DNA from: an uncultured Planctomycetales bacterium
Lineage (GTDB): Bacteria; Omnitrophota; Gorgyraeia; Gygaellales; Profunditerraquicolaceae
Length of the DNA: 27,114 nt
NCBI GenBank assembly: GCA_964421615.1
Contig: CAYQXW010000001.1
Span: 1 to 27,114 of the forward strand
Direction: 5' to 3'
The notes beneath the pieces were generated by a model. The model ran no database searches. It was not told where the DNA came from and saw only the letters and a program-made list of their open reading frames with translations. This document shows, in pieces, positions 42-26,200 of this stretch. The translations under genes and the position numbers were made by a program. Position 1 is the stretch's first letter. The number at the start of each line of letters is the position of its first letter.

Positions 42-1298
42 ATGAAAGATACAAATTTTTTAAAAGAAAAAATTAATTGTTTACCGGATTCATCAGGTGT
101 GTATATTTATAAAGATGCTAACGGGGAAATTCTATATGTTGGGAAAGCGAAGAATTTAAAGAAACGCGTGCAGTCATACTTTACCAGGTTTTTAGACGCA
201 AAAACTCAAGCGTTAGTTGAAAAAATAGCGGATTTAGAATATAGGGAAACGGTTACTGAGTTTCAGGCGCAGCTTCTAGAAGCTTCTTTAATCAAAGAAA
301 TCCAGCCGAAATATAATATCGACCTTAAAGATGATAAATCTTTTCCTTTAATTAAAATATCAAAAGAAGATTTTCCATTGATTGCTATTTGTCGGCATAA
401 AGAATTTTTACAAGATAAGGAAAAAGCTAATTTTTATTATGGGCCTTATTCAAGTGCAATATTTTTACGCCAGGCTTTAAAAGTTATCCGTAAAATATTT
501 GGTTATCGAAGTTGTAAACAATTTCCGAAAGCAGCTTGTCTTTATTTTAGATTGAAAATGTGTCCTGCCCCATGTATTGGTAAAATTCGCAAAGAGGAAT
601 ACTCTCGGATAATTGAAGAAATTAAAATGTTTTTGGATTTGAAGTATGAAAAGCTGATTGAAAGTCTTACTAAGCAAATGGAGTTAGCTGCAAAATCTCA
701 TGAGTACGAGCAGGCGGCTAAAATTCGGGATCAAATTAATGCTTTAAGTGCTTTAGGAAAAACTAATTCTAAGTTTTCTAGCAGTGATGAACTTGAGGAT
801 TTAAAAAAATTATTGAAACTAAAAAGTTTACCGGTTAGAATTGAAGGGTTTGATATTTCTAATATTTCAGGAAAAGAGGCAACTGGGTCTATGGTTAGCT
901 TTCATAGAGGCAGGCCGGATAAAAATAATTATAGAAGGTTTAAAATTAAGGAAGTTTCAGGGATAGATGATTATTCTATGTTGCGGGAAGTAGTAAAAAG
1001 AAGGTATTCTCGGTTGCAGAAAGAAAAAATTAATATGCCAGATTTAGTTTTAATCGACGGTGGAAAACAGCATTTGTTGGCAGCGCAGGATGAATTAAAA
1101 AAATTAAATTTAGATTTGTCTTTGATGAGTATTGCGAAAGACCAAGAACATGTTTATGTTAAAGGAGAAGTTTCGCCAATAAGTTTTTCTGGTGATACGC
1201 CGGCGTTGAATTTGATTCGCAGAGTTAGAGATGAAGCGCATCGGTTTGCGCGTAAGTATCATCATCTTTTACATAAAAAAGCAGTATTTAGTGATTAG
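42..1298 (+). CDS. uvrC: Excinuclease ABC subunit C, compact form without the C-terminal HhH domain
   Basis: GIY-YIG motif (GVYIYKD...ILYVGKAKNL), Cys-rich segment (CKQFPKAACLYFRLKMCPAPC), UVR domain (QMELAAKSHEYEQAAKIRDQI) and RNase H-like domain (RIEGFDISN, LIDGG, RDEAHRFA). Ends at 418 aa. Confidence 0.95.
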   Translation: MKDTNFLKEKINCLPDSSGVYIYKDANGEILYVGKAKNLKKRVQSYFTRFLDAKTQALVEKIADLEYRETVTEFQAQLLEASLIKEIQPKYNIDLKDDKSFPLIKISKEDFPLIAICRHKEFLQDKEKANFYYGPYSSAIFLRQALKVIRKIFGYRSCKQFPKAACLYFRLKMCPAPCIGKIRKEEYSRIIEEIKMFLDLKYEKLIESLTKQMELAAKSHEYEQAAKIRDQINALSALGKTNSKFSSSDELEDLKKLLKLKSLPVRIEGFDISNISGKEATGSMVSFHRGRPDKNNYRRFKIKEVSGIDDYSMLREVVKRRYSRLQKEKINMPDLVLIDGGKQHLLAAQDELKKLNLDLSLMSIAKDQEHVYVKGEVSPISFSGDTPALNLIRRVRDEAHRFARKYHHLLHKKAVFSD

Positions 1299-1299
1299 C

Positions 1300-1578
1300 A
1301 TGACTCCGTTAGCTAAAAAAGTTTATAAAGTTATTTCGACAATTCCAATAGGGCAGACGCGTAGTTACAAATGGGTAGCTCAACAAGTTGGGAGTCCACG
1401 AGCTTTTCAGGCAATCGGACAAATTTTAAAGCGAAATCCATATCCTATAATTATTCCTTGCCATCGCGTAGTAAAAAGCGATAATAGTTTGGGTGGATAT
1501 GTGTTTGGTCAAAGCAAAAAGAAAGAGTTATTAGATTTAGAAAAGGATATATGCATAAGTCTGGGGAACAAAGAATAA
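1300..1578 (+). CDS. ogt: Single-domain MGMT-family methylated-DNA--protein-cysteine methyltransferase (92 aa)
   Basis: IPIGQTRSYKWVAQQVGSPRAFQAIG helix-turn-helix and NPYPIIIPCHRVV active-site motif. ATG at 1300 lies 1 nt after the uvrC stop, so it is preferred over the track's 1231 start. Confidence 0.9.
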   Translation: MTPLAKKVYKVISTIPIGQTRSYKWVAQQVGSPRAFQAIGQILKRNPYPIIIPCHRVVKSDNSLGGYVFGQSKKKELLDLEKDICISLGNKE

Positions 1579-2483
1579 GAGCAGTTTTATATTATATAAG
1601 TTTATCTATATTTTTTATAGGTTTACCATTTATTCTTGCTTTTTCTTTAAGTTATAAATTTAATCCTAAAAAATTACAATTTACAAAAACAGGTATTGTG
1701 GGAATTCGCACTCAACCTTCCGGGGCTTTTGTTTATATTGATGGAAAGTTGTTAACAGATAAAACCCCAGTTAGTATTAATGAACTTTTACCGGGTAAAT
1801 ATAAGATTGAAGCAAAAATAGATGGTTATTATCCTTATTCTATAGATGCAGAAGTTGAAGCAGGTAAAGTTACTAGACTTGAAAAAATTATTCTTTTTCC
1901 TTTGATTCCGAATGTAGAGCAATTAAATAAAGATAGAATTTCGTTTTTCTGGGTAGATGAAGTAAAAGGATTGATTTATTATGTAAATGAATCTGATAAC
2001 GTGATTTATCGTTCTGACCAAAATGGTGAGCATTTTGAAGAAGTTGCGAAGTTTTTGCCAATAACTCCAGTACCCAAAAAATGGGTTTTATCTTACAATA
2101 AAGAGAAATTGATTTATTTTAATAATCATCAAGTAGGAGTTATTAATTTTGAATATAAAGATAAAAATAAGGATACAGGAAGTTTTATTATGAATTTTGC
2201 TCAGGAGAATATTAATGAAGTTTTTTGGTATTCTGATAATTACCATTTAATATTTATTTGCAGTAATAAAATTGCGATTTCAGAAAGCAGAGTAGATGCT
2301 CCATTAATAAATTTGGCGAATTTGAATAAAAAGAATTCTTCTGGGTATTTTGATTCTAGGACAGATATTTTATATTTTTTAGATTCACAACGAGCTAGTG
2401 ATGGTCAGTTTTATGATAATTTATATAAAATTCAGTTAAATAAAAGAATACATTCATTCCAATTTCAAGAGTTTATAAATTAA
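1551..2483 (+). CDS. PEGA domain-containing membrane-anchored protein
   Basis: N-terminal TM helix, then GIVGIRTQPSGAFVYIDGK...TPVSINELLPGKYKIEAKIDGYYPY (PEGA pattern), then a beta-rich region. AAGGA RBS at 1543-1547. Confidence 0.8.
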   Translation: MHKSGEQRIRAVLYYISLSIFFIGLPFILAFSLSYKFNPKKLQFTKTGIVGIRTQPSGAFVYIDGKLLTDKTPVSINELLPGKYKIEAKIDGYYPYSIDAEVEAGKVTRLEKIILFPLIPNVEQLNKDRISFFWVDEVKGLIYYVNESDNVIYRSDQNGEHFEEVAKFLPITPVPKKWVLSYNKEKLIYFNNHQVGVINFEYKDKNKDTGSFIMNFAQENINEVFWYSDNYHLIFICSNKIAISESRVDAPLINLANLNKKNSSGYFDSRTDILYFLDSQRASDGQFYDNLYKIQLNKRIHSFQFQEFIN

Positions 2484-2486
2484 AAT

Positions 2487-3980
2487 ATGAATAAGAATTA
2501 TAAATTAAAAAGATTTTTAGAAATAATTCCTGGGAGCTTGTCTTGGGGAGTTATTCTTTTTTTTATTTTAATCGCTTTTATTAATCCTGTCGGATGTGCG
2601 ATTATAATTATTATTTTTGATTTTTACTGGATCATCCGTACAGTTTATTTAACTACTCTTTTAATTATGGCGCACCAGCGGTTGACTCGGGAGCGTAATA
2701 TAAAATGGTTGGAAGAATGCAAAAAAGTTACAGCAAAGAAAAATTGGCAGGATATTCATCAGTTAGTTTTATTTCCTGTTTATAAAGAAGGCGTGGAGAT
2801 ATTAAGAGCTTCTTTAAATTCTTTGAAGAATTGCGATTATCCTAAAGAAAAAATTTCTGTGGTTATTTCTTTTGAAGATAGGCATTTCCCATCGAAAGAA
2901 ATAGCTAAAATTCTGGAAGAAGAATTTAAGGGTGTATTTTGTAACTATGTTACTACATTTCATCCCGATGGTTTACATGGAGAGAAAAGGTTAAAAGGTG
3001 CAAATGCTACTTGGGCTGCTAAAAGAGCAAAAGATTTCTTATTGAAACAAAATATTCATCTAGATAATGTGGTTGTATCTTGTTTTGATGCGGATACATG
3101 TATTGATAGACAATATTTTGGATGTTTGACTTATCATTTTCTAACTTGTGCTAAACCGCATAAAGCAAGTTATCAACCAGTTCCTGTTTATAATAATAAT
3201 ATTTGGTATGCGCCTTCTTTGGCAAGGTTAGTTGAAATCAGTGCATCTTTTTGCCAGTTAATCGAAAGTATGCGTTTAGAAAAATTTGTTACTTTTTCAA
3301 GTCATAGTATGAGTTTTAAAACTTTAGTCGATATTGATTATTGGCCTGTAGATATGATTTCAGATGATTCGGTAGTTTACTGGAAAGCATTTATTTACCA
3401 TAAAGGTGATTATCGGGTTGTTCCGATGTATACGACTGTTTCTATGGATGTGGCTTATGGAAATGGATTTTTGAAAACGTTAGAAGTTCAGTATAAACAA
3501 AAAAGACGTTGGGCTTGGGGAGTAGAAAATTTTCCTTATGTTGTAATGCGGTTTATGAATAATCGCGATATCCCTTTTTTAGTGAAGGTACGCAGGTCTT
3601 TCCATCTGTTAGAAGGTCATGTTACTTGGGCGGTATGGGCGGTGATTACTATTATTATTGCTCCTTTACCGATTATTTTTGGAGGAGTATTTTTTTCGCA
3701 GATGGCGATAGGTTATAATTTGCCGCGTATTACAGGATTATTATTGCACTTTACATTATTTAATAGTTTAGTTTGGATTCTTTTAAGCAGAACGATTTTA
3801 CCTCCGCGTCCAAAAGATGTCCCGTGGATAAAACATGTGGTAATGATAATTGAATGGTTTATAGTTCCATTTATTATTTTGATTATTGGTTCTACTCCAG
3901 CTTTAGATGCTCAAACAAGAATGATGTTGAAAAAATATATGGAATTTTCTTCTACAGAAAAATTTCGTAAAGTGGTATAA
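2487..3980 (+). CDS. Membrane-integral glycosyltransferase family 2 (processive synthase-type motifs)
   Basis: Two N-terminal TM helices, PVYKE, DADT (DxD), ISDD (TED-like) and QKRRW (QxxRW) motifs, several C-terminal TM helices. Confidence 0.85.
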   Translation: MNKNYKLKRFLEIIPGSLSWGVILFFILIAFINPVGCAIIIIIFDFYWIIRTVYLTTLLIMAHQRLTRERNIKWLEECKKVTAKKNWQDIHQLVLFPVYKEGVEILRASLNSLKNCDYPKEKISVVISFEDRHFPSKEIAKILEEEFKGVFCNYVTTFHPDGLHGEKRLKGANATWAAKRAKDFLLKQNIHLDNVVVSCFDADTCIDRQYFGCLTYHFLTCAKPHKASYQPVPVYNNNIWYAPSLARLVEISASFCQLIESMRLEKFVTFSSHSMSFKTLVDIDYWPVDMISDDSVVYWKAFIYHKGDYRVVPMYTTVSMDVAYGNGFLKTLEVQYKQKRRWAWGVENFPYVVMRFMNNRDIPFLVKVRRSFHLLEGHVTWAVWAVITIIIAPLPIIFGGVFFSQMAIGYNLPRITGLLLHFTLFNSLVWILLSRTILPPRPKDVPWIKHVVMIIEWFIVPFIILIIGSTPALDAQTRMMLKKYMEFSSTEKFRKVV

Positions 3981-4004
3981 TATTTGCAAACTAGGAGGAT
4001 TCAA

Positions 4005-5099
4005 ATGTTAGATATACATACATGTTTACAGATGATGGTTGAGAAAGAAGCTTCTGATATGTTTTTTCGACCGGGTGGTTATTTACGTATGCGTATCAAT
4101 GGTCAGGTTTTAACAATGTCGGAGAAAATGATTAATACCGATGATTTGGATCAGGCTTTACAGAAATTATTATCTGAGGAGTTGAGGGATTTTTTTAGAA
4201 AAAAATTGGATATAGATTTTGCTTATTTTAGCCCAGAACTTAAAAGACGTTTCAGGGTTAGCATTTTTACTCAGCGTAACTGGCCTGCGATTGTTATAAG
4301 AGCGATTCCACCTTTTTCTAAAACACTAGAGGAATTGAAATTACCGGCGGAAGTATTAAAGAAATTGGCAATGGAAAGACGCGGTATGGTTTTGTTGACA
4401 GGAACTATGGGATCTGGAAAATCAACCGCAATTGCTAGTATGATAGAGCATGTTAATGTAAATTGTTTTAAACATGTGCTTACTTTGGAAGAGCCAATTG
4501 AGTTTACATTTTCAGATAAAAATTCTTTTATAAATCAAAGAGAGTTAGGCAAAGATGTTGCTAATTATCCGGTAGCATTAAGAGCGTTTACGTTGCAGAG
4601 TCCAGATGTTATTTACATCGGTAATATTCGTGATGCGGAAACTATGTCAGCGGCTTTAACTGCTGCAGAGACAGGTGTTTTAGTTTTGAGTACTTTGCAT
4701 ACGGTTAATGCGCCACAAACGATTGAAAGAATTATCAATTTTTTTCCACCGCATCAGCATCAGGAAATTAGGACACAGTTATCTTTTTTATTAAAAGGTG
4801 TTATTTCATTGAGGCTTGTTCCTTTGAAAGAAGAGCAGGCGGTTGGAGTTGCTGGAAGAATTCCTGCAAGTGAAGTTATGATACTAAGTCCTACAGTCGG
4901 AAGGTTGATAAGAGAAAATAAGATTTGGGAGATCACTAAAGTTTTGGAAGAAAGTGAAATCTTTGGGATGCATTCTTTTACCCAATCATTAGTCAAATTG
5001 GTTAAAGACGGGGTAGTGACCGAAGAAGAAGCTCTTAATTTTTGTGATAATAAAGATGAGTTTGTTTTATCACTCAAAGGAATAAAGAAACTATGTTAG
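4005..5099 (+). CDS. PilT/PilU-family type IV pilus ATPase with degenerate catalytic motifs
   Basis: ASDMFFRPG, RFRVSIF, Walker A GTMGSGKST, LEEPIEF, INQRELG, STLHT, RLIRE. ATG at 4005 follows an AGGAGG RBS at 3993-3998. Confidence 0.9.
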   Translation: MLDIHTCLQMMVEKEASDMFFRPGGYLRMRINGQVLTMSEKMINTDDLDQALQKLLSEELRDFFRKKLDIDFAYFSPELKRRFRVSIFTQRNWPAIVIRAIPPFSKTLEELKLPAEVLKKLAMERRGMVLLTGTMGSGKSTAIASMIEHVNVNCFKHVLTLEEPIEFTFSDKNSFINQRELGKDVANYPVALRAFTLQSPDVIYIGNIRDAETMSAALTAAETGVLVLSTLHTVNAPQTIERIINFFPPHQHQEIRTQLSFLLKGVISLRLVPLKEEQAVGVAGRIPASEVMILSPTVGRLIRENKIWEITKVLEESEIFGMHSFTQSLVKLVKDGVVTEEEALNFCDNKDEFVLSLKGIKKLC

Positions 5100-6197
5100 T
5101 TGAAATAAAAAATAAATTACAGAATATTTCTATAGTTATTGAAAATCTTCGGGGGTATCTTTGACATAGATAAGAAAAAGCAATCTATTTTAGAATTATC
5201 TAGTCAAATGTCTGAACCTGCTTTTTGGAATGACGAACAAAAGTCTTCTAAAATTGTAAAAGAACTGAAAAGTTTAAAACTTGTAGTAGAACCTTGGGAA
5301 AATTCTTCTAAAAAACTGCAAGAGATAAAAGAATTTTCAGAGTTGCTTAAAGAAGATAAAGAATCAGATTTAATTTCTGAGTTAGAAAAAAATATCCAAG
5401 TATTGGAAGCTGAAGTCGGTAAGTTAGAGTTTAAAACTTTATTAAGCGGTGAAGTTGATCCTAATAGTGCAATGCTGAGCATTAATGCAGGTGCTGGTGG
5501 AACTGAGAGTTGTGATTGGGTTTCTATGCTTTTGCGAATGTATATGCGTTGGGCTGAAGATAAGGGATATAAAGTTAAGACGCTGGATATTTTACCTGGT
5601 GAAGAAGCCGGGGTTAAGAATGTTACGTTGCTAATTGAAGGAGAATATGCTTTTGGATTTGCAAAAGCTGAAAGAGGAGTACATCGGTTAGTACGTATTT
5701 CACCTTTTGATGCTAATAAAAGAAGGCATACTTCATTTGCGTCGGTAGATGTTATTCCAGAAATAGAAGATATGCAGTTGAATATAGATGAAAAAGATTT
5801 ATTGATCGAAACTTTCCGTGCTTCAAGTGCTGGCGGGCAGCATATGCAGAAAACTGAATCAGCAGTTAGGATTACGCATTTACCTTCAGGAATTATTGCT
5901 CAGTCTCAGAATGAACGTTCGCAGCAGCAAAATAAACAAACTGCTATGAAAATTCTTCAAGGCCGAGTTTATGATTATGAGCAGCAGAAAAGAGAACAAG
6001 AATTACAAAAATATGCTGCAGAGAAAAAGAAAATTGAATGGGGTAGTCAGATTCGTTCTTATGTTATGCATCCGTATAATTTGGTAAAAGATCATCGTAC
6101 TGAACATGAAACAGGGAATGTTGCGGCAGTTATGGATGGAAAACTAGATGAATTTATTGAGGCTTATTTAAAAATGCAGGCGAAAGGAAAAGGATAG
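5093..6197 (+). CDS. prfB: Peptide chain release factor 2, translated via a programmed +1 frameshift (about 367 aa)
   Basis: A 23-codon ORF from ATG 5093 ([23 protein letters not shown]) ends at CTT-TGA-C and the +1 frame continues DIDKKK... SPF (RISPFD) and GGQ motifs and the [10 protein letters not shown]-terminus are present. Confidence 0.95.
5151..5165 (+). promoter_or_regulatory. RF2 +1 programmed ribosomal frameshift site
   Basis: GGGGGTATCTTTGAC: internal SD-like GGGGG, slippery CTT at 5159-5161, TGA at 5162-5164, then C. This matches the canonical prfB signal. Confidence 0.95.
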
Positions 6198-6199
6198 AT

Positions 6200-9142
6200 A
6201 TGTTGGGGATTGTAAGAAAAATAAATTTGAATAGAGCTCAGAAAAAAATTAAGAAAAATCATCCTAATGTTAAAATGGTTTTGCATAAAGAGATGCCTAT
6301 TTCTTCTATGAATGATATGCCAAGGCTGGCGGCAATTGTAAATAAAGTAAATCTATTTGAAGAAAAGGTAAAACCTTTGTCTGATGCGCAGTTATGTGAA
6401 AAAACTCACCAGTTTAAAGAGTATTTAATTAAGAAGTCAGAAGAGATTAATCCTCAGATTGAAGAATTAAACAACATGATGGAATCTGTTACTATCCAAG
6501 AGGAAAAAGATAAACTTAAAGAAAAAATAAAGTTAACCAGAAATAAAATTTTTGAAGATATTTTACCGGAAGCTTTTGCTGTGGTGCGTGAAGCGTCCAT
6601 TAGAACTATAGGTTTGCGTCATTTTGATGTGCAGATTGCTGGAGGTATAATTTTACATGAAGGAAAAATTCCAGAAATGTCTACCGGTGAAGGTAAGACA
6701 TTAGTGGCAACTTTACCTGCGTATCTTAATGCATTATTAGGTAAAGGTGTGCATATTGTAACTGTGAATGATTATTTAGCAAAGAGAGATAGTGAATGGA
6801 TGGGGCCGATTTTTAAATTTCTTGGGTTAACCGTTGGGGTTATCCAGCATGAATTATCTGATCCGCAAAGAAAAGTGGCTTATGGCTGTGATATTACATA
6901 TGGAACCAATAATGAATTTGGATTTGATTATTTGCGTGACAATATGAAGTATTCTATTGAAGATGTTGTTCAACGGGAACATTATTATGCAATTGTTGAT
7001 GAGGTTGATTCAATTTTGATTGATGAGTCTAGGACTCCTTTAATTATTTCTGGAGCAGCGGAAGAGTCGACAGATAAATATTATACTGCAAAAACAATTG
7101 CAGAAAAATTAAAAGGTAGAAGAATTACTGAAAATGATGAGATTGATGCAAAACATAAAGGCGAAGATTTATCTGTTGGGTTTGATTATGTTGCAGATGA
7201 AAAAGCTCAGACTATTTCCTTGAGTGAAGAAGGGGAAGCAAAAGCTGCTAAATATTGGGGCGTAGATAATTTATATAGTTTTGAAACTATGGAATTAAAA
7301 CACCATATTAATCAGGCTTTGAGAGCTAAAGAATTTTTCAGGAAAGATAAGGATTATATAGTTAAAGATAACCAGGTAATTATTGTTGATGAGTTTACTG
7401 GACGATTGATGCCTGGAAGACGTTGGTCTGACGGATTGCATCAGGCGATTGAGTCTAAAGAAGGAATGAAAATAGAAAGAGAAAACCAGACTTTAGCTAC
7501 AATTACTTTTCAGAATTATTTTAGAATGTATGAAAAGTTAGCAGGGATGACAGGTACAGCTTATACTGAAGCCAGTGAGTTTAAAACGATTTATAGATTG
7601 GAAGTTGTAACGTTGCCGACAAATAGGCCGTTGATTCGTGAGAATTTTCCGGATTCAATTTATCGGACGGAAAAAGAAAAATTTGATGCAGTTGTTAATG
7701 AAATCTCTGAGCTGTATAAAAAAGGTAAACCGGTTTTAGTGGGAACTATTTCTATAGAGAAATCTGAACTGCTTTCAGAGTTACTAAAAAGAAAAGGTGT
7801 GCAGCATCAAGTGTTGAATGCTAAATACCATGAGATGGAAGCGCAGATAGTTGCTCAGGCAGGTCGATATAAGGGAGTTACAATCGCTACCAATATGGCG
7901 GGTCGAGGTACAGATATTTTATTAGGAGGGAACCCTGAATTTTTAGCAAGAAGTTTAATGACTCAAAAAGTAAATTCCGGGGAAGCAAATCTGAATTATG
8001 AAGAAGAATATGTAAAAGTAAAAGAAAGATTTAAAAATCAAGCTAAAGAAGAGCACAATAAAGTTGTGGATCTTGGGGGATTGCATGTTTTAGGTACAGA
8101 ACGTCATGAATCTCGCCGTATTGATAACCAGCTGCGAGGTCGTTGTGGACGTCAAGGTGATCCAGGCGCTTCAAGATTTTATATTTCATTAGAAGATGAT
8201 TTAATGCGTTTGTTCGGTTCTGATAAATTAAAAGGGCTTATGGGAACATTTGGTTTTGAAGAAGGGCAAGTAATTGAGCATCCTTTAGTCAGCCGTTCTT
8301 TGGAAGTCGCCCAGAAAAGAGTAGAACAGCATAATTTTGAAATACGTAAGCAGCTGCTTGAATATGATAATGTTATGAATAAACAAAGAGAAGTTATTTA
8401 TGGACAGCGTCGGGATATTTTAGGCGGTTCTAACCTTAAAGAACAGATATATTTTATTGTTGAAAAAATTGTTGATAGTTTTGTTGAGGATTTTTTTAGA
8501 GAAGAACAAGAGGAATCAAAAGTTACTGATGAGGAAAAAGTTAAGCAGCTTATTTCTGCAGTGGGAATGAAATTTGGAGTGAGTATAACTAATTCCGATA
8601 TTGATGGTAAGAATAGAGATGATTTAAAAAAAGATTTAAATGATAAAGTGATTGCTTTTTATGAAGAAAAAGAAAAGCGGATTGGAACTGAACTTTCCCG
8701 CCATATGGAAAGAATGGTTTTTCTACAGATTATGGATAGTAAGTGGAAAGATCATCTTTACGCGATGGATAAACTTCGAGAAGGAATTGGGCTGCGAGCT
8801 TATGGGCATCGGGATCCGTTGATCGAATACAAAAAAGAAGCTTTTTCTTGTTTTAGTATAATGATGGATGGGATTGATGATGAAGCTGTTGAAATGATTT
8901 ATAAACTTCAACCGGTAAAAGAAGAACGGGTTAAAACAGTTTTTCATGCTGATAATCAGCAGATGGTTCACCCGGAAGTTAATAAATCTGCAAGTATTCA
9001 GAAAGAAGCAGAGCATTCTTCCAGTCAGCCTCAAAAAGTGCAGACTCAAGTTAATGCTGCAAATGATAAAGTTGGACGAAATGATCCTTGTCCTTGTGGT
9101 TCGGGGAAAAAATTTAAAAAATGTTGTGGGATCAACGGTTGA
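6200..9142 (+). CDS. secA: Preprotein translocase ATPase SecA
   Basis: MSTGEGKT Walker [48 protein letters not shown], and C-terminal [23 protein letters not shown]. Confidence 0.98.
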
Positions 9143-17726: not shown

Positions 17727-18386
17727 ATGATTAAATTAATAAATATAATAGTCTTTTTTATGTTTTTTGCGTCTCCTGTTTTTGCTCAAACAGTTACGCA
17801 GCCGGAAAAAATAATAATTTTTATTACGGAACAGAGTATTGATAATAGTAAATTTTCTTGGTGGATTAATGAAATGGATTATTCTGTAAGCGAAAAAGAG
17901 ATTGCTAATAAGCTGGAGGCAACAGGTTTTCAGGTTATAAATCCTGTGAGTTTATTAGATTTATTGAAGAACGAAAAAGTATTTAAGCCACGCAATGGAA
18001 CTGATGCGAGTTTTTTAAAATTGGCGAGTAAGTCTGGTGCGAATTTAGCAATTATTGGACAATCCATTGTATCTTTAAGTAAATCTGGGTCTAATGCTGA
18101 TACTCGTACTTGTTTTGCAAATGTTACAGGCAAAATAATTAATGTTGATAACGGTCAAGTTATTGGGTTTATAGAATCTTCGTCTAGCGCTTTAAATGTA
18201 GATATTGTTTTGGCGAGTAAGGATTCTTTGTTTAAGGCTATAGATGTTTTTAATTCCAGGATAATAGATAAGTTGAAAAGTGTATTTAAGAAGGAAGAAA
18301 GAGCAGAAGATAAAAACAATAATGAACCCAATTTAAGTGGCGATGTAATCGTTGGTAATATTACTGGGAATGTAACTAAGATATGA
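17727..18386 (+). CDS. Secreted hypothetical protein, probable CsgG/FlgT/TolB-N-like alpha/beta domain
   Basis: Signal peptide (...ASPVFA|Q). The pattern IANKLEATGFQVIN...ASKSGANLAIIGQ...ANVTGKIINVDNGQVIG is typical of that fold class; the fold assignment is inference. Confidence 0.6.
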   Translation: MIKLINIIVFFMFFASPVFAQTVTQPEKIIIFITEQSIDNSKFSWWINEMDYSVSEKEIANKLEATGFQVINPVSLLDLLKNEKVFKPRNGTDASFLKLASKSGANLAIIGQSIVSLSKSGSNADTRTCFANVTGKIINVDNGQVIGFIESSSSALNVDIVLASKDSLFKAIDVFNSRIIDKLKSVFKKEERAEDKNNNEPNLSGDVIVGNITGNVTKI

Positions 18387-19063
18387 TTAAAAATGTGCTT
18401 AAGTTATTGTTAATAATTTTTTTTATTGGTGGATGTGCAACTGTTCCTAAAAATGCAGCTATTGTTGATAAATCTCAAGATAAATCATTATTGCCTGTAT
18501 ATTCTGGTTTAAAATCACGGATTACTATAGCTGATTTTGAACTTAAAGCTGCTAAAGCTTCTAGTGATATAGGATTTGGATTACGAGAGATGTTAGTTAA
18601 TTTATTAATCAATAGTAATAAATTTTCTATTATTGAAAGACAGAATTTAGTAGGTAATGGTAATAAAGATAAAGTTGAAACTGCAGATTTAATTGTTTCT
18701 GCCAGTGTTGTTGAATTTGAACCTCAAGCTTCAGGTGGTAGCGCTGGAGTTGGAGGTGGTGGTGGAGTCAATAGTGGATTATTAGGTGGGTTGTTGGGTG
18801 CGTCTTTAAGTAAAGCGCATATGACTTTAGAGATAAAAATTGCAGATGCGGTTACATCTGAAATTGTTGCGACGACAAGTATTTCTGGTCGAGCTACGGA
18901 TATGAATGGTGATATTATGGGGGGAGTTATTACTAATTGGAAGTTAGGATCAGGGTTAGATGTTTTTGCTAATTCTCCTATGGAAAAAGCGATCAGAATT
19001 TGTATAATTGAATCAATGAGATATGTTACGCAGAATATTCCGTTAAAATATTACAAATACTAA
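18383..19063 (+). CDS. CsgG/HfaB-family lipoprotein
   Basis: Lipobox IGG|C, RITIADFE, GLREML...NSNKFSIIERQNL, ADLIVSASVVEFE, a Gly-rich hairpin, LEIKIADAVTSEIV, SPMEKAIR. Overlaps the upstream gene by ATGA. Confidence 0.8.
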   Translation: MIKNVLKLLLIIFFIGGCATVPKNAAIVDKSQDKSLLPVYSGLKSRITIADFELKAAKASSDIGFGLREMLVNLLINSNKFSIIERQNLVGNGNKDKVETADLIVSASVVEFEPQASGGSAGVGGGGGVNSGLLGGLLGASLSKAHMTLEIKIADAVTSEIVATTSISGRATDMNGDIMGGVITNWKLGSGLDVFANSPMEKAIRICIIESMRYVTQNIPLKYYKY

Positions 19064-19479: not shown

Positions 19480-21203
19480 TTAAGAAGATTTATTTAGTCG
19501 GTAATCCTAATGTCGGAAAAAGCCTTGTTTTTTCGCGATTAACTGGCGTTCATACTGTTGTGTCTAATTTTGCAGGGACTACTCTTGAAGTAACGAAAGA
19601 TTTGATTGAATATGAATCTGCAAAAATTGAAATTTTAGATTTGCCTGGTATTTATTCTTTAGAAGGGGAATCTAAAGCGGATGAATTGGTGTCGCAAGTT
19701 TTAGCTAAAGAAAATAAAGATGAAGTTGTAATTTTTAATGTTATTGATTCTACTAATTTGGAAAGAAATCTTTATTTGACTTTACAGCTTTTAGAGCAAG
19801 GTTTTTCTTTAGTTTTATGTTTGAATATGTGTGATGAAATGAAGCATCGCGGTATTCAGATTGATATTGAAAAAATGCAGGAGATTTTAGATGTTCCGGT
19901 TGTTTTTACTTGTGCGGTTACAGGCAACGGTATAAAAAATATTATAGATAAAATTAAGCAAGCTAAAAAAAAGGAAGTTGTTTCTAGAACTCATGAACAG
20001 CGTTGGGTAGAAATAGGAAAAATTGTAGAGTCAGTTCAGAAATTAACACATAAACATCATAGTTTTAGAGAAGTTTTAGAGGATATTTCAATTAATCCAT
20101 ATACTGGCTTTTTAGTTGCAGGTGTTGTTTTGTTTTCTTCTTTTAAAGTAATCACTTTGTTCGCGAAGTTTTTAATCGAAAAAATTTTTGATCCTTTATT
20201 TTTTGATTTTTATCAGCCTGTATTAGTTAATTTAAGTAATTATTTAGGCGGAGATGGTTTTTGGCACCATTTATTTATAGGGGATTTAATTAACGGTAAA
20301 ATAGATTTTGAACAATCTATGGGTGTGTTAACGACTGCTCCTTATATAGAAATCGCAATGGTTTTGCCATATATTATATCTTTCTATATGGTTTTGAGTT
20401 TGTTGGAAGATATTGGGTTTTTACCGCGGTTTGCATTGCTTTTAGACAATATTTTTCATAAACTTGGACTTCATGGTTATGCGATTATTCCTATCCTTTT
20501 AGGGTTTGGGTGTAATGTTCCTGGTATTATCTCAACACGTATGCTTGAATCTAAGCGCGAAAGATTTATTGTATCTGTGTTAATTTCTATAGGCGTACCG
20601 TGTGTTACTTTACAAGCGATGATTTTAGGACTACTCGGGAAAATTTCCGGATTTTATGTTGCTGGTGTTTATGGAGTTTTATTTTTTTTATGGTTAGTAT
20701 TAGGGTTTTTCTTGAATAAAATAATGAAGGGTGATAGTCCAGAATTGTTGATAGAGATCCCTTCATACAAATTTCCTCCAGTATGGTTATTGCTGAAAAA
20801 GATTTTTAGTCGAATTTTTGGTTTTTTGCTGGAAGCTTTTCCTTTAGTTCTATTGGGAGTTTTATTTGTAAATATCCTATTTTATTTTAATCTATTAAAT
20901 GCTGTTACAAATATTTTTTCTCCTGTTATTCAAGGTTTATTTGGTTTACCAAAAGAATCTGTTATCGCTTTAGTTATGGGGTTATTAAGAAAAGATGTTG
21001 CAGTGGCTATGCTTGTACCGTTGCATTTGAGCGCTAAACAACTTTTTATTTCGGTTACTTTACTTGCAATATCATTTCCGTGTATCGCGACTTTTATCGT
21101 GTTGTTAAAAGAATTAGGGATTCGTTATTTTTTAAAAGCAGTTCTTTTAATGGTAGGGATAGGTATTATTGTAGGTGTTGTTCTTAATTTGGGGATAAGA
21201 TAA
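19476..21203 (+). CDS. feoB: Ferrous iron transporter B (short, 575 aa)
   Basis: G1 GNPNVGKS, G2 NFAGTT, G3 DLPGIYSL, G4 NMCD, gate motifs LEDIGFLPR, GFGCNVP and PCVT, and FPCIAT. Confidence 0.93.
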   Translation: MIKKIYLVGNPNVGKSLVFSRLTGVHTVVSNFAGTTLEVTKDLIEYESAKIEILDLPGIYSLEGESKADELVSQVLAKENKDEVVIFNVIDSTNLERNLYLTLQLLEQGFSLVLCLNMCDEMKHRGIQIDIEKMQEILDVPVVFTCAVTGNGIKNIIDKIKQAKKKEVVSRTHEQRWVEIGKIVESVQKLTHKHHSFREVLEDISINPYTGFLVAGVVLFSSFKVITLFAKFLIEKIFDPLFFDFYQPVLVNLSNYLGGDGFWHHLFIGDLINGKIDFEQSMGVLTTAPYIEIAMVLPYIISFYMVLSLLEDIGFLPRFALLLDNIFHKLGLHGYAIIPILLGFGCNVPGIISTRMLESKRERFIVSVLISIGVPCVTLQAMILGLLGKISGFYVAGVYGVLFFLWLVLGFFLNKIMKGDSPELLIEIPSYKFPPVWLLLKKIFSRIFGFLLEAFPLVLLGVLFVNILFYFNLLNAVTNIFSPVIQGLFGLPKESVIALVMGLLRKDVAVAMLVPLHLSAKQLFISVTLLAISFPCIATFIVLLKELGIRYFLKAVLLMVGIGIIVGVVLNLGIR

Positions 21204-22195
21204 TGAAAGCAATTGCGTTAATTTCCGGTGGGTTAGACAGTATTTTAGCAGCGAAAATAATTAAAGATATGAATATTGATGTTATGGGAGTTTATTTTAG
21301 AACTCCTTTTGATATGCTTGATAAGGGGGCTGTGACTAAAGAAGAGTATATCCGTAATTTGACTTCTCAACAGTCGATAGATTTTCAAGTTATAGATTTA
21401 GGGCAGGATTTTTTGGATATGGTTAAAAAACCTAAACATGGGTTTGGCGCAAATGTTAATCCGTGTATTGATTGTCGAATTTATATGTTAAAAAAAGCTA
21501 AGCAGATGATGCTGGATACAGGTGCATCTTTTTTAGTTACCGGAGAAGTTTTAGGCCAGAGGCAGATGTCTCAGCATTTAAGAACGATGTTGAAGATTGA
21601 TAAAGAAGCAGATGTTGAAGGAATAAACTTAAGGCCGCTTTGTGCAAAACATCTTGAGGAAACTATTCCAGAAAAAAATGGGTGGGTAGACAGGAATAAC
21701 TTATTTGATTTTGCGGGTAGAGGAAGAAGAAACCAGATTGATTTAGCGATTACTTTAGGGATTGTAGAATTTGCGCAGCCAGCTGGAGGTTGTTTGTTAA
21801 CTGATGTTCAGTATGCGAAAAGGTTTCGCGATCTTTTAAAGTTCGGTACATATGATTTAAATAATATTGAACTTTTGAAATACGGTAGACATTTTAAATT
21901 AGCAGATAATATTAAATTGATTGTAGGTAGGAATTTAAGAGATAATGATGCAATTACAAGATTATCTGGTTGCGGAAATTTTTTATTGGAACCTCCGGAA
22001 GAAGTTGCTGGTCCGACTGCTTTAGTAATAGGTCAGGCGCAGAAGGAAAATTTAGAGTTGGCAGCAGCGATTGTTTGTCGGTATTGTGATAAAAAAGAGT
22101 TAGTTGTGAGCTGTAAAGATTTATTGAATAACCAGAAAAGTCTTTTTAATGTTGCAGCAATTGATGATTTAAAAGCGCAAGAGTATAGAATATAA
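21203..22195 (+). CDS. ThiI-like PP-loop ATPase (putative tRNA thiolation enzyme) with a C-terminal DUF814/NFACT-R-like region
   Basis: SGGLDS PP-loop, NPCIDC, TGEVLGQR.MSQ, LRPLCAK, PAGGCLLT, GRHF...KLIVGRN. Confidence 0.8.
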   Translation: MKAIALISGGLDSILAAKIIKDMNIDVMGVYFRTPFDMLDKGAVTKEEYIRNLTSQQSIDFQVIDLGQDFLDMVKKPKHGFGANVNPCIDCRIYMLKKAKQMMLDTGASFLVTGEVLGQRQMSQHLRTMLKIDKEADVEGINLRPLCAKHLEETIPEKNGWVDRNNLFDFAGRGRRNQIDLAITLGIVEFAQPAGGCLLTDVQYAKRFRDLLKFGTYDLNNIELLKYGRHFKLADNIKLIVGRNLRDNDAITRLSGCGNFLLEPPEEVAGPTALVIGQAQKENLELAAAIVCRYCDKKELVVSCKDLLNNQKSLFNVAAIDDLKAQEYRI

Positions 22196-22215: not shown

Positions 22216-23232
22216 ATGATTAAAGAAGCGTTACTTTATGAAAAACAGGAAGATAAAAAAGTTAAGTGTTTGCTTTGTGCGCATGAATGTTTGGTTGAAG
22301 TAGGCAAATTTGGATTTTGTGGTGTAAGACAGAATTTAGAAGGTAAGCTATATACGCATGTTTATGGGAATATCATTTCTTCTCATGCTGATCCGATAGA
22401 GAAAAAACCTTTGTACCATTTTTTACCTGGTTCAAAAAGTTTTTCTATTGCTTCAGTGGGTTGTAATTTTAGGTGCCATTTTTGTCAAAATTGGGAAATT
22501 TCCCAGTTGCGTAAGGATCAGCAGATAAGTTTGCCAGAAAAAGAATTTACTTGTGAACAGATTGTTGAAGAAGCAGTGAAGTATAGATGTCAGAGTATAT
22601 CTTTCACTTATACTGAACCTACAGTTTTTTTTGAGTTTGCGTTGGATGTTGCTAAACGGTCGTTTGAGCGGAAACTAGCGAATATTTTTGTGACTAATGG
22701 ATTTATGAGTGCAAAAGCTATTGAAATGATTGCCCCTTATTTAAGTGCGGCAAATATAGATCTTAAATTTTTTAAGGACGAATCTTATAAAAAAATTTGT
22801 GCAGGGAAATTGGAGCCAGTTTTAAATTCGATTCGCTTAATGAAGAAACTTGGTATTTGGGTTGAAGTTACCACGTTAGTTGTGCCAAAACAAAATGATA
22901 ATGAAAAAGAGTTGAGGAATATTGCGGAATTTATTGCTGGGGTAGATAAAAGTATTCCGTGGCATATATCTAGATTTTTTCCGAATTATAAGTATGACGA
23001 TTTAAGCGCAACAGGAGATCGGATATTAAAAATTGCTGAAAAAACCGGGCATGAATCTGGATTGAATTATGTTTATGTCGGTAATGCTTATGGTTGGAAT
23101 AATGATACAGTTTGTTCTAGTTGCAAAGAAATTCTGGTTAAAAGAAATGGTTTTACTATTTTAGAAAATAATATTGAGCAGGGTATTTGTAAATTTTGTA
23201 AAAAAGAGATACCTGGTAAATTTAATAATTGA
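22216..23232 (+). CDS. amrS: AmmeMemoRadiSam system radical SAM enzyme
   Basis: N-terminal CLLCAHEC...GFCGVR, DPIEKKPLYHFLPG, CxxxCxxC (GCNFRCHFCQNWEIS), FTYTEPT, WHISRFFP, YVYVGN, and C-terminal CxxC pairs. Confidence 0.9.
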   Translation: MIKEALLYEKQEDKKVKCLLCAHECLVEVGKFGFCGVRQNLEGKLYTHVYGNIISSHADPIEKKPLYHFLPGSKSFSIASVGCNFRCHFCQNWEISQLRKDQQISLPEKEFTCEQIVEEAVKYRCQSISFTYTEPTVFFEFALDVAKRSFERKLANIFVTNGFMSAKAIEMIAPYLSAANIDLKFFKDESYKKICAGKLEPVLNSIRLMKKLGIWVEVTTLVVPKQNDNEKELRNIAEFIAGVDKSIPWHISRFFPNYKYDDLSATGDRILKIAEKTGHESGLNYVYVGNAYGWNNDTVCSSCKEILVKRNGFTILENNIEQGICKFCKKEIPGKFNN

Positions 23233-23257: not shown

Positions 23258-26200
23258 ATGAAATTAGTCTGGCATCAGGAGATTAACGATGTTGAAGCAG
23301 TGTTGAATAGTAATTCTAACAGCGGGATTTCTAATGTAGAAGCAAAGGCGAGATTAGAAAAGTATGGCCCTAATGTTTTAAAAGAAGGCAAAAAAATAAC
23401 TCCGTTAGAAATATTTATTGACCAGTTTAAAGATTTTATCGTGTGGATTTTAATTGGGGCAGCATTAGTTTCAGGATTCTTAAAAGAATGGGTTGATGCG
23501 TTAGCTATAGTTGCAATTGTGGTTCTTAATGCAATTTTAGGGTTTATTCAGGAATATCGTGCAGAGAAATCATTGGCCGCTTTAAAAAAACTTTCTGCTC
23601 CAAATTCTAAAGTTATTCGCGATGGGAAAAATAAACTGATTCCATCTTCTGAAATTGTTGTTGGAGATTTAGTGGAGTTAGAAGCTGGTGATTATGTTCC
23701 AGCGGATAGCCGTTTGGTTTGGGCGAGTTCGAATTTTGCTACTTTGGAAGCAAGTTTAACTGGAGAATCAACTCCGGTTATGAAAACTTCATTAGCGTTG
23801 GAAGAAAAAGAAGTATCTTTGGCAGATAGGGCGAATATGGTTTATTTAGGAACTTCTGTCTCTAGTGGTAAATCCAGAGCTTTAGTTTTTCATACGGGAA
23901 TGAATACGGAATTAGGTAAGATTGCCGGTATGATACAAGATATTAAAACTGAAGAGACGCCGTTACAGAAAAAATTAGAAGAGTTCGGTAAAAGAATTGT
24001 AGTTATTTGTTTTATTCTTGTGGGATTAGTTTTTATTTTGGGTATTATTCGAGAAGGTATTTCTAAAGACCATCTAATTGAACTATTTTTAACTTCTGTT
24101 AGCCTTGCAGTTGCGGCTATTCCGGAAGGGTTGCCTGCAGTAGTAACTATTGCATTGGCATTAGGTGTGCAGAGAATGGTTAAACGTAATGCGTTAATCC
24201 GTAAGTTGCCTTCTGTTGAAACTCTTGGATGTGCAACAGTTATTTGTTCTGATAAAACAGGGACTTTGACTAAAAATGAAATGACTGTGCAAGCTTTGTA
24301 TACTTTAAATAATAGTTTTAAGGTTACAGGTATTGGTTATAATCCGAATGGGCAAATATTAGCTGGGGATAAAAATATTGATTTAAAAAAATATGTTGAT
24401 TTAGAAAAGTTATTAAGTTGTTCTGTTCTGTGTAATGGTGCGATGTTAGTTGTAGATAAAGATAATACTAAAATTGTTGGTGACCCTACAGAGGCAGCTT
24501 TGTTAACCGTGAGTGCTAAAGTAGATATTTGGAAAGAGAAAGAAGAAAAAAATTATGTTTTTGTAGAGGAAATTCCTTTTGATTCTGAAAGAAAGAAGAT
24601 GACTATTGTAAGAAGAGATAAAAGTGATAATATTTTTGCTTTTGTCAAAGGTGCGCCGGATATGTTGATTAATGATTGTACTAAAATATTGGATAATGGT
24701 TCTATTCGTGAATTGATTGCTCCCGATAAAGAAAAGATATTAAATAAAAATATGGAATTTGCTAATAATGCAATGCGTGTTTTAGCGATAGCATATAGAA
24801 ATATTGATAATCCTCGGGATAAATATGACGTTTGCGCAATAGAGAATAATTTAGTTTTTGTTGGGCTTGTTGCAATGATTGATCCTCCTCGAGATGAAGT
24901 TCGCGAAGCGATTAAAATTTGTAAAAGCGCAGGTATTCGTACAGTTATGATAACAGGTGATCACAAGAATACAGCCGTTGCTATTGCAAAAAGTTTAGGT
25001 TTCTTTCATCAGGAATCTTTAGCTATGACAGGAGAAGAGTTAGATAAAGTTTCTGATGATGAATTGAAAGAAAAAATTGAAAAAATTTCTGTTTATGCGC
25101 GTGTTTCTCCAGAGCATAAGTTGAGAATTGTTAAAGCTTGGCGTAAAAAGGGCCAGGTTGTGGCAATGACTGGCGATGGGGTTAATGATGCTCCAGCAGT
25201 TAAAGAGGCAGATATTGGCGTGGCTATGGGGATTACAGGAACAGATGTAACAAAAGAAGTTTCTGATATGGTTGTAACTGATGATAACTTTGCTTCCATT
25301 GTTTCTGCTGTTGAAGAGGGACGAGGAATTTATGATAATATTAAAAAGTTTATTCATTATCTTTTATCATGTAATACCGGTGAAATTTTAGTAATGTTTA
25401 GTGCTTCTTTATTTGGGTTGCCAATACCATTATTGCCTATACATATTTTGTGGGTCAATTTAGTTACTGATGGTTTACCGGCATTAGCTTTGGGAGTTGA
25501 TCCTGTTGATAAAAAAATAATGAATAGGCAGCCGAGAAAGCAGAATGAACCGGTTATAACTAAAAAGAATATGTTGTTAATGTTGATGCAGGGTGCGTTT
25601 ATTGCATTTTGCAGTTTGTTGGCGTTTTGTTTTGTGATGTATGTTGAAAAAGAAGGGTTAGCTAGAGGAAGAACAGCCGCGTTTATAGTTCTATCTTGTT
25701 CGCAGTTATTTCATTCTTTTAACTGTAGAAGCCAAGTTGAATCATTATTTAAATTAGGCGTTTTTACTAATATGAAATTAATTGCTGCAAATTTTGTTTC
25801 GTTTTCATTGCAGATGATGGTTGTTTATGTTCCGTTTTTTCAGAAAATATTTAAAACTGAAGCTTTAAGTTTGACTGATTGGTTGTTTGTTATTGCAGTT
25901 GCATCTTTGCCTTTATGGGGGATGGAGCTTTATAAAATTTTTGTTAAGACCAAAGAAGAAAATAAAATGGTCATAAGCAATAAACTTCCGGAACTCGCCA
26001 GAGTAGCTGAATTTATTGAAAGCCTGGGCGAAAAATGGGGCGTTTCGCAAAAGGCCGTCATCGACATAAACGTCTGCATGGAAGAACTGATTGTCAACAC
26101 TATATCATACGGTTATCCCGACAAAGGCCGGCACGAGATCGAAATAACCGTCACGCGCGAAGAGCGGGCCATAAAAATAAGGATCGAGGACGGCGGATGC

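Follow-up and report, generated by a model that had tools for sequence, protein, structure and literature searches.

PilT is the retraction ATPase of the type IVa pilus, and structures have been solved for PilT4 of Geobacter metallireducens (6OJX/6OK2), PilT2 of Thermus thermophilus (5FL3) and the PilT proteins of Pseudomonas aeruginosa (3JVV) and Aquifex aeolicus (2EWV). ATPases of this family have been treated as obligate motors. Here we describe a PilT-like protein encoded on a contig of 27,114 nucleotides (nt) from an uncultured bacterium that is labelled Planctomycetales in GenBank and placed in Omnitrophota by GTDB (CAYQXW010000001.1, positions 1 to 27,114 of the forward strand; this whole stretch is called the window). 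A first-pass annotation of the window had proposed that the protein is a candidate pseudo-ATPase, citing four substitutions in its catalytic motifs. We find that the catalytic Glu and five other conserved PilT positions are replaced throughout a large clade of orthologues, and that the gene is held by strong purifying selection.

The residues that matter for this comparison have published roles. The Glu that follows the atypical Walker B motif coordinates and activates the water attacking the gamma-phosphate and has been described as completely conserved in the superfamily (PMC5424180). An Asp-box Glu coordinates Mg, the second His of the His box contacts the gamma-phosphate, the first His is packed on a Thr from the adjacent unit, and the N-terminal domain supplies two Arg fingers (PMC5424180). 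In G. metallireducens PilT (PilT-Gm, whose numbering is that of the window's protein minus 2), R195 touches D161 when the interface is closed and T133 when it is open; R195 and T133 are evolutionarily coupled (PMC6858323). A proton relay from E204 through H230 and T221 to T133 has been proposed, and twitching is lost with E204A and with H229A (PMC6858323).

PilT rings that do not work as motors are known from mutants. In Vibrio cholerae, Acinetobacter baylyi and P. aeruginosa, a PilT defective in ATP binding or hydrolysis permits retraction powered by PilU, but a pilT deletion does not (PMC6762196, PMC6821130). PilT and PilU form separate homohexamers (PMC6821130). Several PilT genes may also occur in one genome, some of them away from pilus gene clusters, as with PilT1-4 of Geobacter sulfurreducens and with PilT, PilU and three paralogues in Myxococcus xanthus; all of these have been reported to carry the Walker A and B, Asp-box and His-box hallmarks (PMC5065972, PMC13584747). 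Within the limits of the literature that we searched, no natural catalytically degenerate PilT homologue or clade has been described.

The pilT-like gene of the window and its motifs are as follows.

Positions 3993-3998, plus strand: Shine-Dalgarno-like AGGAGG, 6 nt 5' of ATG 4005, found by direct reading of the sequence.
Positions 4005-5099, plus strand: PilT/PilU-family gene with degenerate catalytic motifs, 364 amino acids (aa), identified by translation, TIGR01420, PF00437 and an AlphaFold2 model.
Positions 4254-4301, plus strand: Arg-finger region R84...R99; both Arg are kept and the adjacent canonical N86 is Ser.
Positions 4401-4427, plus strand: Walker A, G133-T-M-G-S-G-K139-S-T141; the P-loop is intact and the PilT-typical Thr (T133 of PilT-Gm) is M135.
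Positions 4485-4502, plus strand: Asp box, L161-E162-E163-P-I-E166 against (I/V)EDPIE; two Glu are kept and the canonical Asp is Glu.
Positions 4590-4607, plus strand: T196-L197-Q-S199-P-D201 against LRQDPD; the interface Arg (R195 of PilT-Gm) is Leu.
Positions 4614-4634, plus strand: atypical Walker B, Y-I-G-N207-I-R-D210 against hhGE(M/I)RD; the catalytic Glu is Asn.
Positions 4668-4700, plus strand: His box, E-T223-G-V225-L-V-L-S-T-L-H232 against ETGHLV.STLH; the first His is Val, and T223 and H232 are kept.
Positions 4809-4811, plus strand: L269, where the S-Q-x-L strand canonically has Gln; the sixth fixed switch.

ATG 4005 is likely to be the start codon, because AGGAGG stands 6 nt upstream of it and the alignments with homologues begin at residue 2; the residue numbering is sound for the same reasons. 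The protein scores 365 bits with TIGR01420, the PilT/PilU model, over residues 4-352 of 364 (curated cut-off 319.1), and it matches PF00437 (T2SSE) with E = 7.8e-36. The AlphaFold2 model (predicted local distance difference test score, pLDDT, 82.5; predicted template-modelling score, pTM, 0.75) shows the two-domain PilT fold with a PAS-like N-terminal and a RecA-like C-terminal domain. Its top matches in the PDB are PilT and PilU with template-modelling (TM) scores of 0.81-0.90, the highest being to chain F of G. metallireducens PilT4 (6ok2_F). The protein aligns over its full length with the solved PilT and PilU structures, and its best solved relatives, at 241-252 bits, are Thermus PilT2, Geobacter PilT4 and Pseudomonas PilU.

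The motifs singled out by the first-pass annotation, LEEPIE, TLQSPD, YIGNIRD and ETGVLVLSTLH, are read exactly in the translation of 4005-5099, and its segment 4488-4700 runs from codon E162 to codon H232. When the protein is mapped on PilT-Gm, L197 falls on R195, E163 on D161, M135 on T133, N207 on the catalytic Glu and V225 on the first His; among the kept residues, T223 falls on T221 and H232 on H230. The four substitutions thus hit the catalytic Glu, the Arg-Asp pair of the closed interface and the first His of the His box, residues of published function (PMC5424180, PMC6858323). The same annotation had called Walker A intact. This is correct for the generic P-loop GTMGSGKST, but the Thr specific to PilT has been replaced by M135. 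Judged by alignment, the catalytic base and both partners of the interface salt bridge or hydrogen bond are changed in the clade, and every residue that would hold ATP-Mg is kept. The counterpart of the PilT motif AIRNLIRE is T-V-G-R-L-I-R-E (residues 297-304), in which the LIRE part is conserved; R300 is fixed in the degenerate clade, and canonical PilTs most often have Asn there.

We asked how far these residues are fixed among relatives. Thousands came out of a search in 5.8 billion proteins, the best 120 being 64-76% identical to the window's protein. In a scan that covered one genome per species, 222 genomes had a relative, and the best 80 loci, 60-75% identical, were taken from these. 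Codons and residues were counted in 82 orthologues, 60-76% identical and nearly all labelled as metagenome-assembled genomes (MAGs) of Candidatus Omnitrophota. Among the best 120 proteins, whose named members are PilT/PilU family ATPases of Candidatus Omnitrophota, E163, L197, S199 and N207 each occur in all 120 and V225 in 117, and the P-loop residues G136, S137, G138, K139, S140 and T141 are invariant. In the 82 orthologues N207 is present without exception, encoded by AAT in 62 and by AAC in 20. V225 is found in 80 of them with all four Val codons in use, and L197 in 77 with all six Leu codons in use, the remainder having F or M and never R. E163 is encoded by GAA or GAG in 79 of the 82, and the other three have D163 together with N207. 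The synonymous turnover at N207, V225 and L197 shows that selection acts on the amino acid itself. The residues of the nucleotide site are equally constant: K139, S140, E162, E166, R84, R99 and H232 are present in 82 of 82 and T223 in 79, and R209, the equivalent of V. cholerae PilT R206, is retained. The spacing of R84 and R99, 15 residues, equals that of R271 and R286 in PilB-Gm (PMC5424180).

The ratio of nonsynonymous to synonymous substitution (dN/dS) was calculated by the Nei-Gojobori method for the 38 of 3321 pairs that were usable, synonymous sites being otherwise saturated (median proportion of synonymous differences, pS, ~0.80). The median in the same genomes is 0.088 for the pilT-like gene, 0.094 for prfB, 0.096 for secA and 0.139 for uvrC, and in the closest genome pairs dN of the pilT-like gene is usually the lowest of the four. 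The pilT-like gene is thus under strong purifying selection, as strong as that on prfB and secA. Its open reading frame (ORF) is intact and of full length in the window and at all 82 loci. An orthologue and dN/dS check had been proposed by the first-pass annotation, which would have given up its reading if the substitutions were confined to this sequence and went with general decay. The outcome is the reverse: the GN, TL and GV substitutions are conserved in ~200 orthologues with synonymous turnover and a dN/dS of ~0.09. Judged from its sequence, the protein combines the marks of a pseudoenzyme, namely loss of catalytic residues, a retained fold and purifying selection.

The canonical set for comparison consisted of the 150 nearest representatives of 50%-identity clusters, drawn from 35,135 matches, with 157 domains outside the degenerate clade. 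In these domains position 207 is Glu in 153 of 155, position 197 Arg in 152 of 154, position 225 His in 142 of 154 and position 163 Asp in 149 of 154; in an unconditioned count, position 269 is Gln in 136 of 154. S199, which stands for the first Asp of RQDPD, is weak evidence because Ser, Ala or Asn is common there in canonical PilTs (36 of 155). We also scanned without prior choice of motifs for positions at least 85% conserved in canonical PilTs and fixed to another residue in the window's clade. Among 77 conserved positions the scan gave six fixed switches, N86S, D163E, R197L, E207N, H225V and Q269L, and 47 positions that are identical in the degenerate clade and canonical PilTs. The four substitutions noticed earlier are thus four of six family-wide switches, N86S and Q269L being additional (at position 269 the frequency of Gln is 0.89 in canonical PilTs, against 0.94 for Leu in the clade). 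With six positions switched and 47 identical, the changes are targeted and not diffuse. The P-loop Thr of GPTGSGKST has become Met or Ala in the clade, and Met never occurs in the canonical representatives.

More distant relatives suggest an order of events. Written as the residues at 197, 199, 207 and 225, the distant degenerate representatives read Q-S-N-T/C (P0128, P0147), M-S-N-V (P0133), M-S-Q-A (P0127) and Y-S-T-Q (P0184), and all degenerate sequences that carry names are from Omnitrophota. A neighbour-joining tree, which is a distance tree only, places the degenerate sequences in one monophyletic group with canonical PilTs as sister, and thereby points to a single origin of the degenerate PilT-like proteins. 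Within the group the tree progresses from QSNT through MSN(V/A) to LSNV, the main clade. The earliest degenerate branch (QSNT) still has D163 and N86. Therefore the catalytic Glu and the interface Arg would have been lost first, and D163E and N86S would have come later.

Some loci with the Omnitrophota-type gene order bear other taxon labels (L011, L012, L015, L026, L034, L043, L072 and others), namely Deltaproteobacteria, Planctomycetales, Patescibacteria, Margulisiibacteriota and Verrucomicrobiota; these labels are probably mislabelled or placeholder taxonomy.

By homology the protein is a member of the PilT/PilU family, and by the positions of the catalytic Glu, first His and interface Arg it is neither a canonical PilT nor a canonical PilU. 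With PilT (6OJX/6OK2, 5FL3, 3JVV, 2EWV) it shares its length and two-domain fold (TM up to 0.90, 33-38% identity), as well as the P-loop, the Asp-box Glu pair, the Arg fingers, the second His, the GxxRD tail of Walker B and an xxxRLIRE form of AIRNLIRE. It differs in that the clade lacks the catalytic Glu, the interface Arg, the Asp-box Asp, the first His, the P-loop Thr, N86 and Q269, and in that its gene is distant from pilB, pilC, pilU and other pilus genes. Similarity to P. aeruginosa PilU (9N32) is near that to PilT (241 versus 243-252 bits; TM 0.83-0.88), and PilU is likewise an extra member of the PilT family whose function may depend on other components. However, PilU keeps all catalytic motifs and requires its own ATPase activity (PMC6821130), whereas the protein of the window lacks these motifs. 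Moreover, pilU usually lies directly downstream of pilT (PMC6762196), and the pilT-like gene shows no such arrangement. Identity with PilU was rejected on these two grounds.

The best functional analogy for what would be a catalytically dead PilT-family protein is offered by the ATPase-defective PilT variants (V. cholerae K136A/E204A and the R206S of strain MO10), in which a hydrolysis-defective ring still serves as a platform for another motor (PMC6762196, PMC6821130). Those variants are single laboratory or one-strain substitutions, whereas the present change is coordinated over six positions and fixed across a phylum. The Geobacter and Myxococcus paralogues are comparable in that some of them, too, lie away from pilus clusters, but the degenerate clade lacks the hallmarks that they carry. 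Tandem PilT-PilT fusions (P0135, P0157, P0131) contain a domain without catalytic residues beside a canonical module, so that non-catalytic PilT modules recur. The fusions differ in being fused and in their idiosyncratic losses, which include the Walker A Lys, whereas the PilT-like protein is a single unit that retains this Lys and is part of a large clade of orthologues.

Such tandem fusions, of 660-1024 aa, were seen among the nearest representatives (P0122-P0126, P0129, P0131, P0135 and P0157). In some of them one copy lacks the Walker A Lys, the His-box His or other motifs and the other copy is canonical.

The gene lies in an array of housekeeping genes. The order in the window is uvrC, an ORF resembling O6-methylguanine methyltransferase (MGMT), a PEGA-domain gene, a family-2 glycosyltransferase (GT2) gene, the pilT-like gene, prfB, secA, lnt, a major facilitator superfamily (MFS) transporter, a cation diffusion facilitator (CDF) transporter and glgC; further on lie more metabolic and transport genes, feoB and a P-type ATPase gene. 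The neighbours nearest to the pilT-like gene are these.

Positions 42-1578, plus strand: uvrC (418 aa) and an overlapping MGMT-type ORF (ogt-like), the conserved upstream anchor.
Positions 1551-3980, plus strand: PEGA-domain protein and 497-aa GT2, from Pfam matches, directly upstream of the pilT-like gene.
Positions 5093-6197, plus strand: prfB, encoding release factor 2 (RF2; TIGR00020, 496 bits).
Positions 6200-9142, plus strand: secA, after prfB.

The order uvrC-ogt-(PEGA-GT2)-pilT-like-prfB-secA-lnt is conserved across the related loci, and the deep QSNT lineage (L092) keeps uvrC-(ogt)-pilT-like-prfB-secA. The coupling to prfB and secA that had been pointed out in the window is general: prfB is directly downstream at all 78 loci that extend far enough, and secA follows prfB at all 63 that are long enough. 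At one further locus (L090) a 5.5-kb insertion separates the pilT-like gene from prfB. In the window prfB starts (ATG 5093) before the pilT-like gene has ended at its stop codon, the overlap being 7 nt; at other loci the two genes are mostly 10-45 nt apart. The prfB gene has a programmed +1 frameshift site, CTT TGA C at 5159-5165, preceded by a Shine-Dalgarno-like GGGGG; the site is present at 80 of the 82 loci. PEGA and GT2 occur at 40 related loci and are absent from 37, where ogt abuts the pilT-like gene, and thus they form an optional cassette and not a partner. Promoter and terminator scans of the window gave no more sites than in shuffled sequence, and so the operon structure is read from gene spacing. 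The array would argue for constitutive co-expression of the pilT-like gene with core genes. Because the functions of the neighbours are unrelated, we regard it as inherited housekeeping gene order and not as a functional module. Membership in a defence system or mobile element was considered and rejected, because the surroundings are of housekeeping type and are kept throughout the phylum. Positions 3000-7000 of the window are matched (41-92% of sampled words) by contigs from four DNA runs of a single wastewater-metagenome study.

The uvrC gene is short, with GIY-YIG, UVR and RNase H-like domains and no match to the C-terminal helix-hairpin-helix. The 115-aa MGMT-type ORF that overlaps it has only the DNA-binding domain of O6-methylguanine methyltransferase, and the pair is conserved in related loci.

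In one sub-lineage the degenerate gene has a different neighbour. A metagenome scan with P0133 as query recovered relatives of the MSNV and LSNV types. On L091, L093, L094 and L096, four independent contigs, an ORF of 125-127 aa with a PilZ domain comes directly after the degenerate gene (27-29 bits, cut-off 22.5; 6110-6487 in L091, 7131-7514 in L093). The PilZ ORF of L091 contains RKFFR and NLSVSG, which fit RxxxR and (D/N)xSxxG and which we take to be a signature of cyclic di-GMP (c-di-GMP) binding. A CHASE2-GGDEF diguanylate cyclase gene lies 3 kb beyond the PilZ ORF in L093, alongside a sugar MFS transporter and an OprB porin. PilZ-domain proteins are known partners of pilus ATPases. The adjacency hints at a regulatory, second-messenger-linked role in the P0133-type sub-lineage.

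Canonical PilTs also occur in MAGs labelled Omnitrophica (P0153 and P0339 types), part of this cluster being labelled Ratteibacteria, so that its phylum is uncertain. A canonical pilT follows rpoA-rplQ in the assemblies JAMWCD, JAMWDM and JAMWCQ (look-ups with P0339, P0316, P0340 and P0299). This position of the Omnitrophica canonical pilT at the end of the ribosomal-protein/rpoA-rplQ cluster (8001-9098 in L083; also L085, L088 and L089) is an unusual housekeeping location. An ORF of 59-70 aa precedes the gene there, one copy matching RNA_pol_Rpb6, and purD follows, directly or one ORF on.

The sequence-level result is robust, and a phylum-wide PilT under secA-like constraint that lacks the catalytic Glu would be unexpected to a specialist; its role must be argued from the residues. 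We favour, as reasonably probable, that the protein is an ATP-binding, hydrolysis-deficient or very slow hexamer derived from PilT, with a non-motor role and the base of the type IVa pilus as its most plausible target. The fold and the residues of the ATP-Mg interface are retained, namely the P-loop Lys and Ser, the Asp-box Glu pair, the Arg fingers and the His that contacts the gamma-phosphate. Lost are the water-activating Glu (N207) and the coupled set of the closed interface and proton relay (L197, E163, M135, V225), together with N86S and Q269L. Such a protein could form hexamers and bind ATP at the subunit interfaces, and its hydrolysis would be abolished or very slow, as in Glu-to-Ala and Glu-to-Gln mutants. 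It would then act through a nucleotide-dependent shape and not through mechanical work, possibly as a long-lived plug, as an adaptor or as a switch on a membrane platform that responds to nucleotides or a second messenger. Mixed hexamers had been suggested. This is contrary to the published finding that PilT and PilU assemble separately, and therefore a separate plug, adaptor or sensor ring is favoured. The most plausible target would be PilC/PilM at the pilus base, because type IVa pilus gene sets have been reported in nearly all Omnitrophota: 135 of the 141 genomes from Velamenicoccia have them, and so does the majority of those from the other classes (PMC10066038). This choice of target is the weakest step of the argument.

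Several observations weigh against the non-motor ring at the pilus base. Some activity may persist with Asn in place of Glu, and a carboxylate could be provided instead by the fixed D163E. An accessory regulator of pili would not normally be expected to experience selection as strong as that on secA and prfB. Pfam and profile scans found no pilus genes in the window, which bears out the earlier remark that the gene sits away from them, and no second secretion-type (T2SSE) ATPase lies within 10 kb at the 82 loci; the constant neighbours, uvrC/ogt and prfB/secA, carry no information on pili. No canonical PilT was found in the same genome as the degenerate gene, the assemblies with a canonical PilT not being among the 80 loci of the degenerate gene. 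The word 'paralogue' in the first-pass annotation is therefore provisional. The PilZ link is confined to one sub-lineage and is absent from the window's own lineage. Finally, no RNA-seq run containing the stretch 3000-7000 was found.

A non-motor ring of this kind would matter for two reasons. First, a large and old clade without the catalytic Glu, under selection at the level of secA, is informative about a family of supposed motors: it would show that a PilT ring has a selectable function apart from motor activity, which has only been hinted at by laboratory mutants of PilT without ATPase activity. Second, proteins of the clade score above the threshold of the PilT/PilU model and appear in public records as 'twitching motility protein PilT' or 'PilT/PilU family type 4a pilus ATPase', and genome-based claims of a complete retractile type IVa pilus in Omnitrophota may therefore count a protein unable to power retraction. 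Omnitrophota are uncultivated and ultra-small, they probably depend on hosts, and how they attach is an open question (PMC10066038). If their pilus or export machinery carries a conserved brake, adaptor or sensor, this would be of direct relevance to that question.

A bolder form of this reading is that the clade is a phylum-wide, essential-like pseudo-ATPase that arose once from PilT, an ATP-locked non-motor ring serving as a nucleotide or c-di-GMP gate on the pilus or the Sec machine. We consider this form improbable. If true, the secretion-ATPase superfamily would have its first natural member that is non-catalytic and yet has a conserved function of its own, and the target of the ring would be the type IVa pilus that holds host cells or, more radically, the co-encoded Sec export pathway.

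The alternative that survives best is a rewired but active motor. Here a different residue would act as general base in hydrolysis. E163 is an example, its side chain being longer than that of the canonical Asp and, with Arg lost at 197, released from its salt bridge. The protein would then be the retraction ATPase, possibly the sole one, of the Omnitrophota type IVa pilus. The invariance of the nucleotide- and Mg-binding residues and of both Arg fingers fits an active enzyme, as do the very strong purifying selection and the fixation of D163E together with E207N in the main clade. No canonical PilT was found in the same genomes, and pseudoenzymes with migrated catalytic residues are known (PMC10211241). 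However, the earliest lineages (P0128 and P0278 types) have N207 with the canonical D163, so that Asn arose without the putative replacement, and the same pair is seen in 3 of the 82 orthologues. Six active-site and closed-interface positions changed together, which resembles the dismantling of a relay and not a one-for-one swap, and E204A abolishes the function of PilT (PMC6858323). On this evidence we think an active motor unlikely.

It has also to be asked whether the ring was recruited to a housekeeping role apart from pili, in SecA/Lnt export, in translation termination or in UvrC/Ogt repair. This would account for the retention of a single copy under constraint like that of an essential gene, and it agrees with the dN/dS equal to those of prfB and secA and with the lack of pilus genes nearby. 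The conserved array uvrC-ogt-pilT-like-prfB-secA-lnt, with its fixed prfB and secA and its persistence in deep-branching lineages, also speaks for it, as do the stop/start overlap in the window and the short gaps elsewhere. But the neighbours have unrelated functions and the array looks like inherited gene order, the link to prfB is breakable, as the insertion in L090 shows, and in another sub-lineage the gene has been relocated beside PilZ. We know of no case in which a member of the PilT family works together with SecA, RF2 or UvrC, and we hold such a role to be quite unlikely.

One can dismiss the ideas that the gene is decaying into a pseudogene, that it is an artefact of assembly or that its substitutions arose by chance in one metagenomic contig, since only the four non-canonical residues themselves speak for them, and against them stand the intact full-length ORF in the window and at 82 loci, the same residues fixed in ~200 sequences with synonymous turnover, the low dN/dS, the 47 retained canonical positions, a model that folds with confidence, and the presence of the stretch in contigs from four independent runs.

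Some further features were seen elsewhere in the window. Positions 23258-26365 encode a P-type cation-transporting ATPase of 1035 aa with a C-terminal HATPase_c_2 domain (an ATPase like those of anti-sigma factors and histidine kinases), which is an unusual fusion. A 330-aa protein at 21203-22195 combines a PP-loop domain of the ThiI/tRNA-methyltransferase type with a C-terminal NFACT-R_2 RNA-binding domain, and it is followed by a radical SAM protein at 22216-23232. A CsgG-like lipoprotein of the curli secretion channel family is encoded at 18383-19063, with no other curli genes seen, and is preceded at 17727-18386 by an ORF of 219 aa without a Pfam match.

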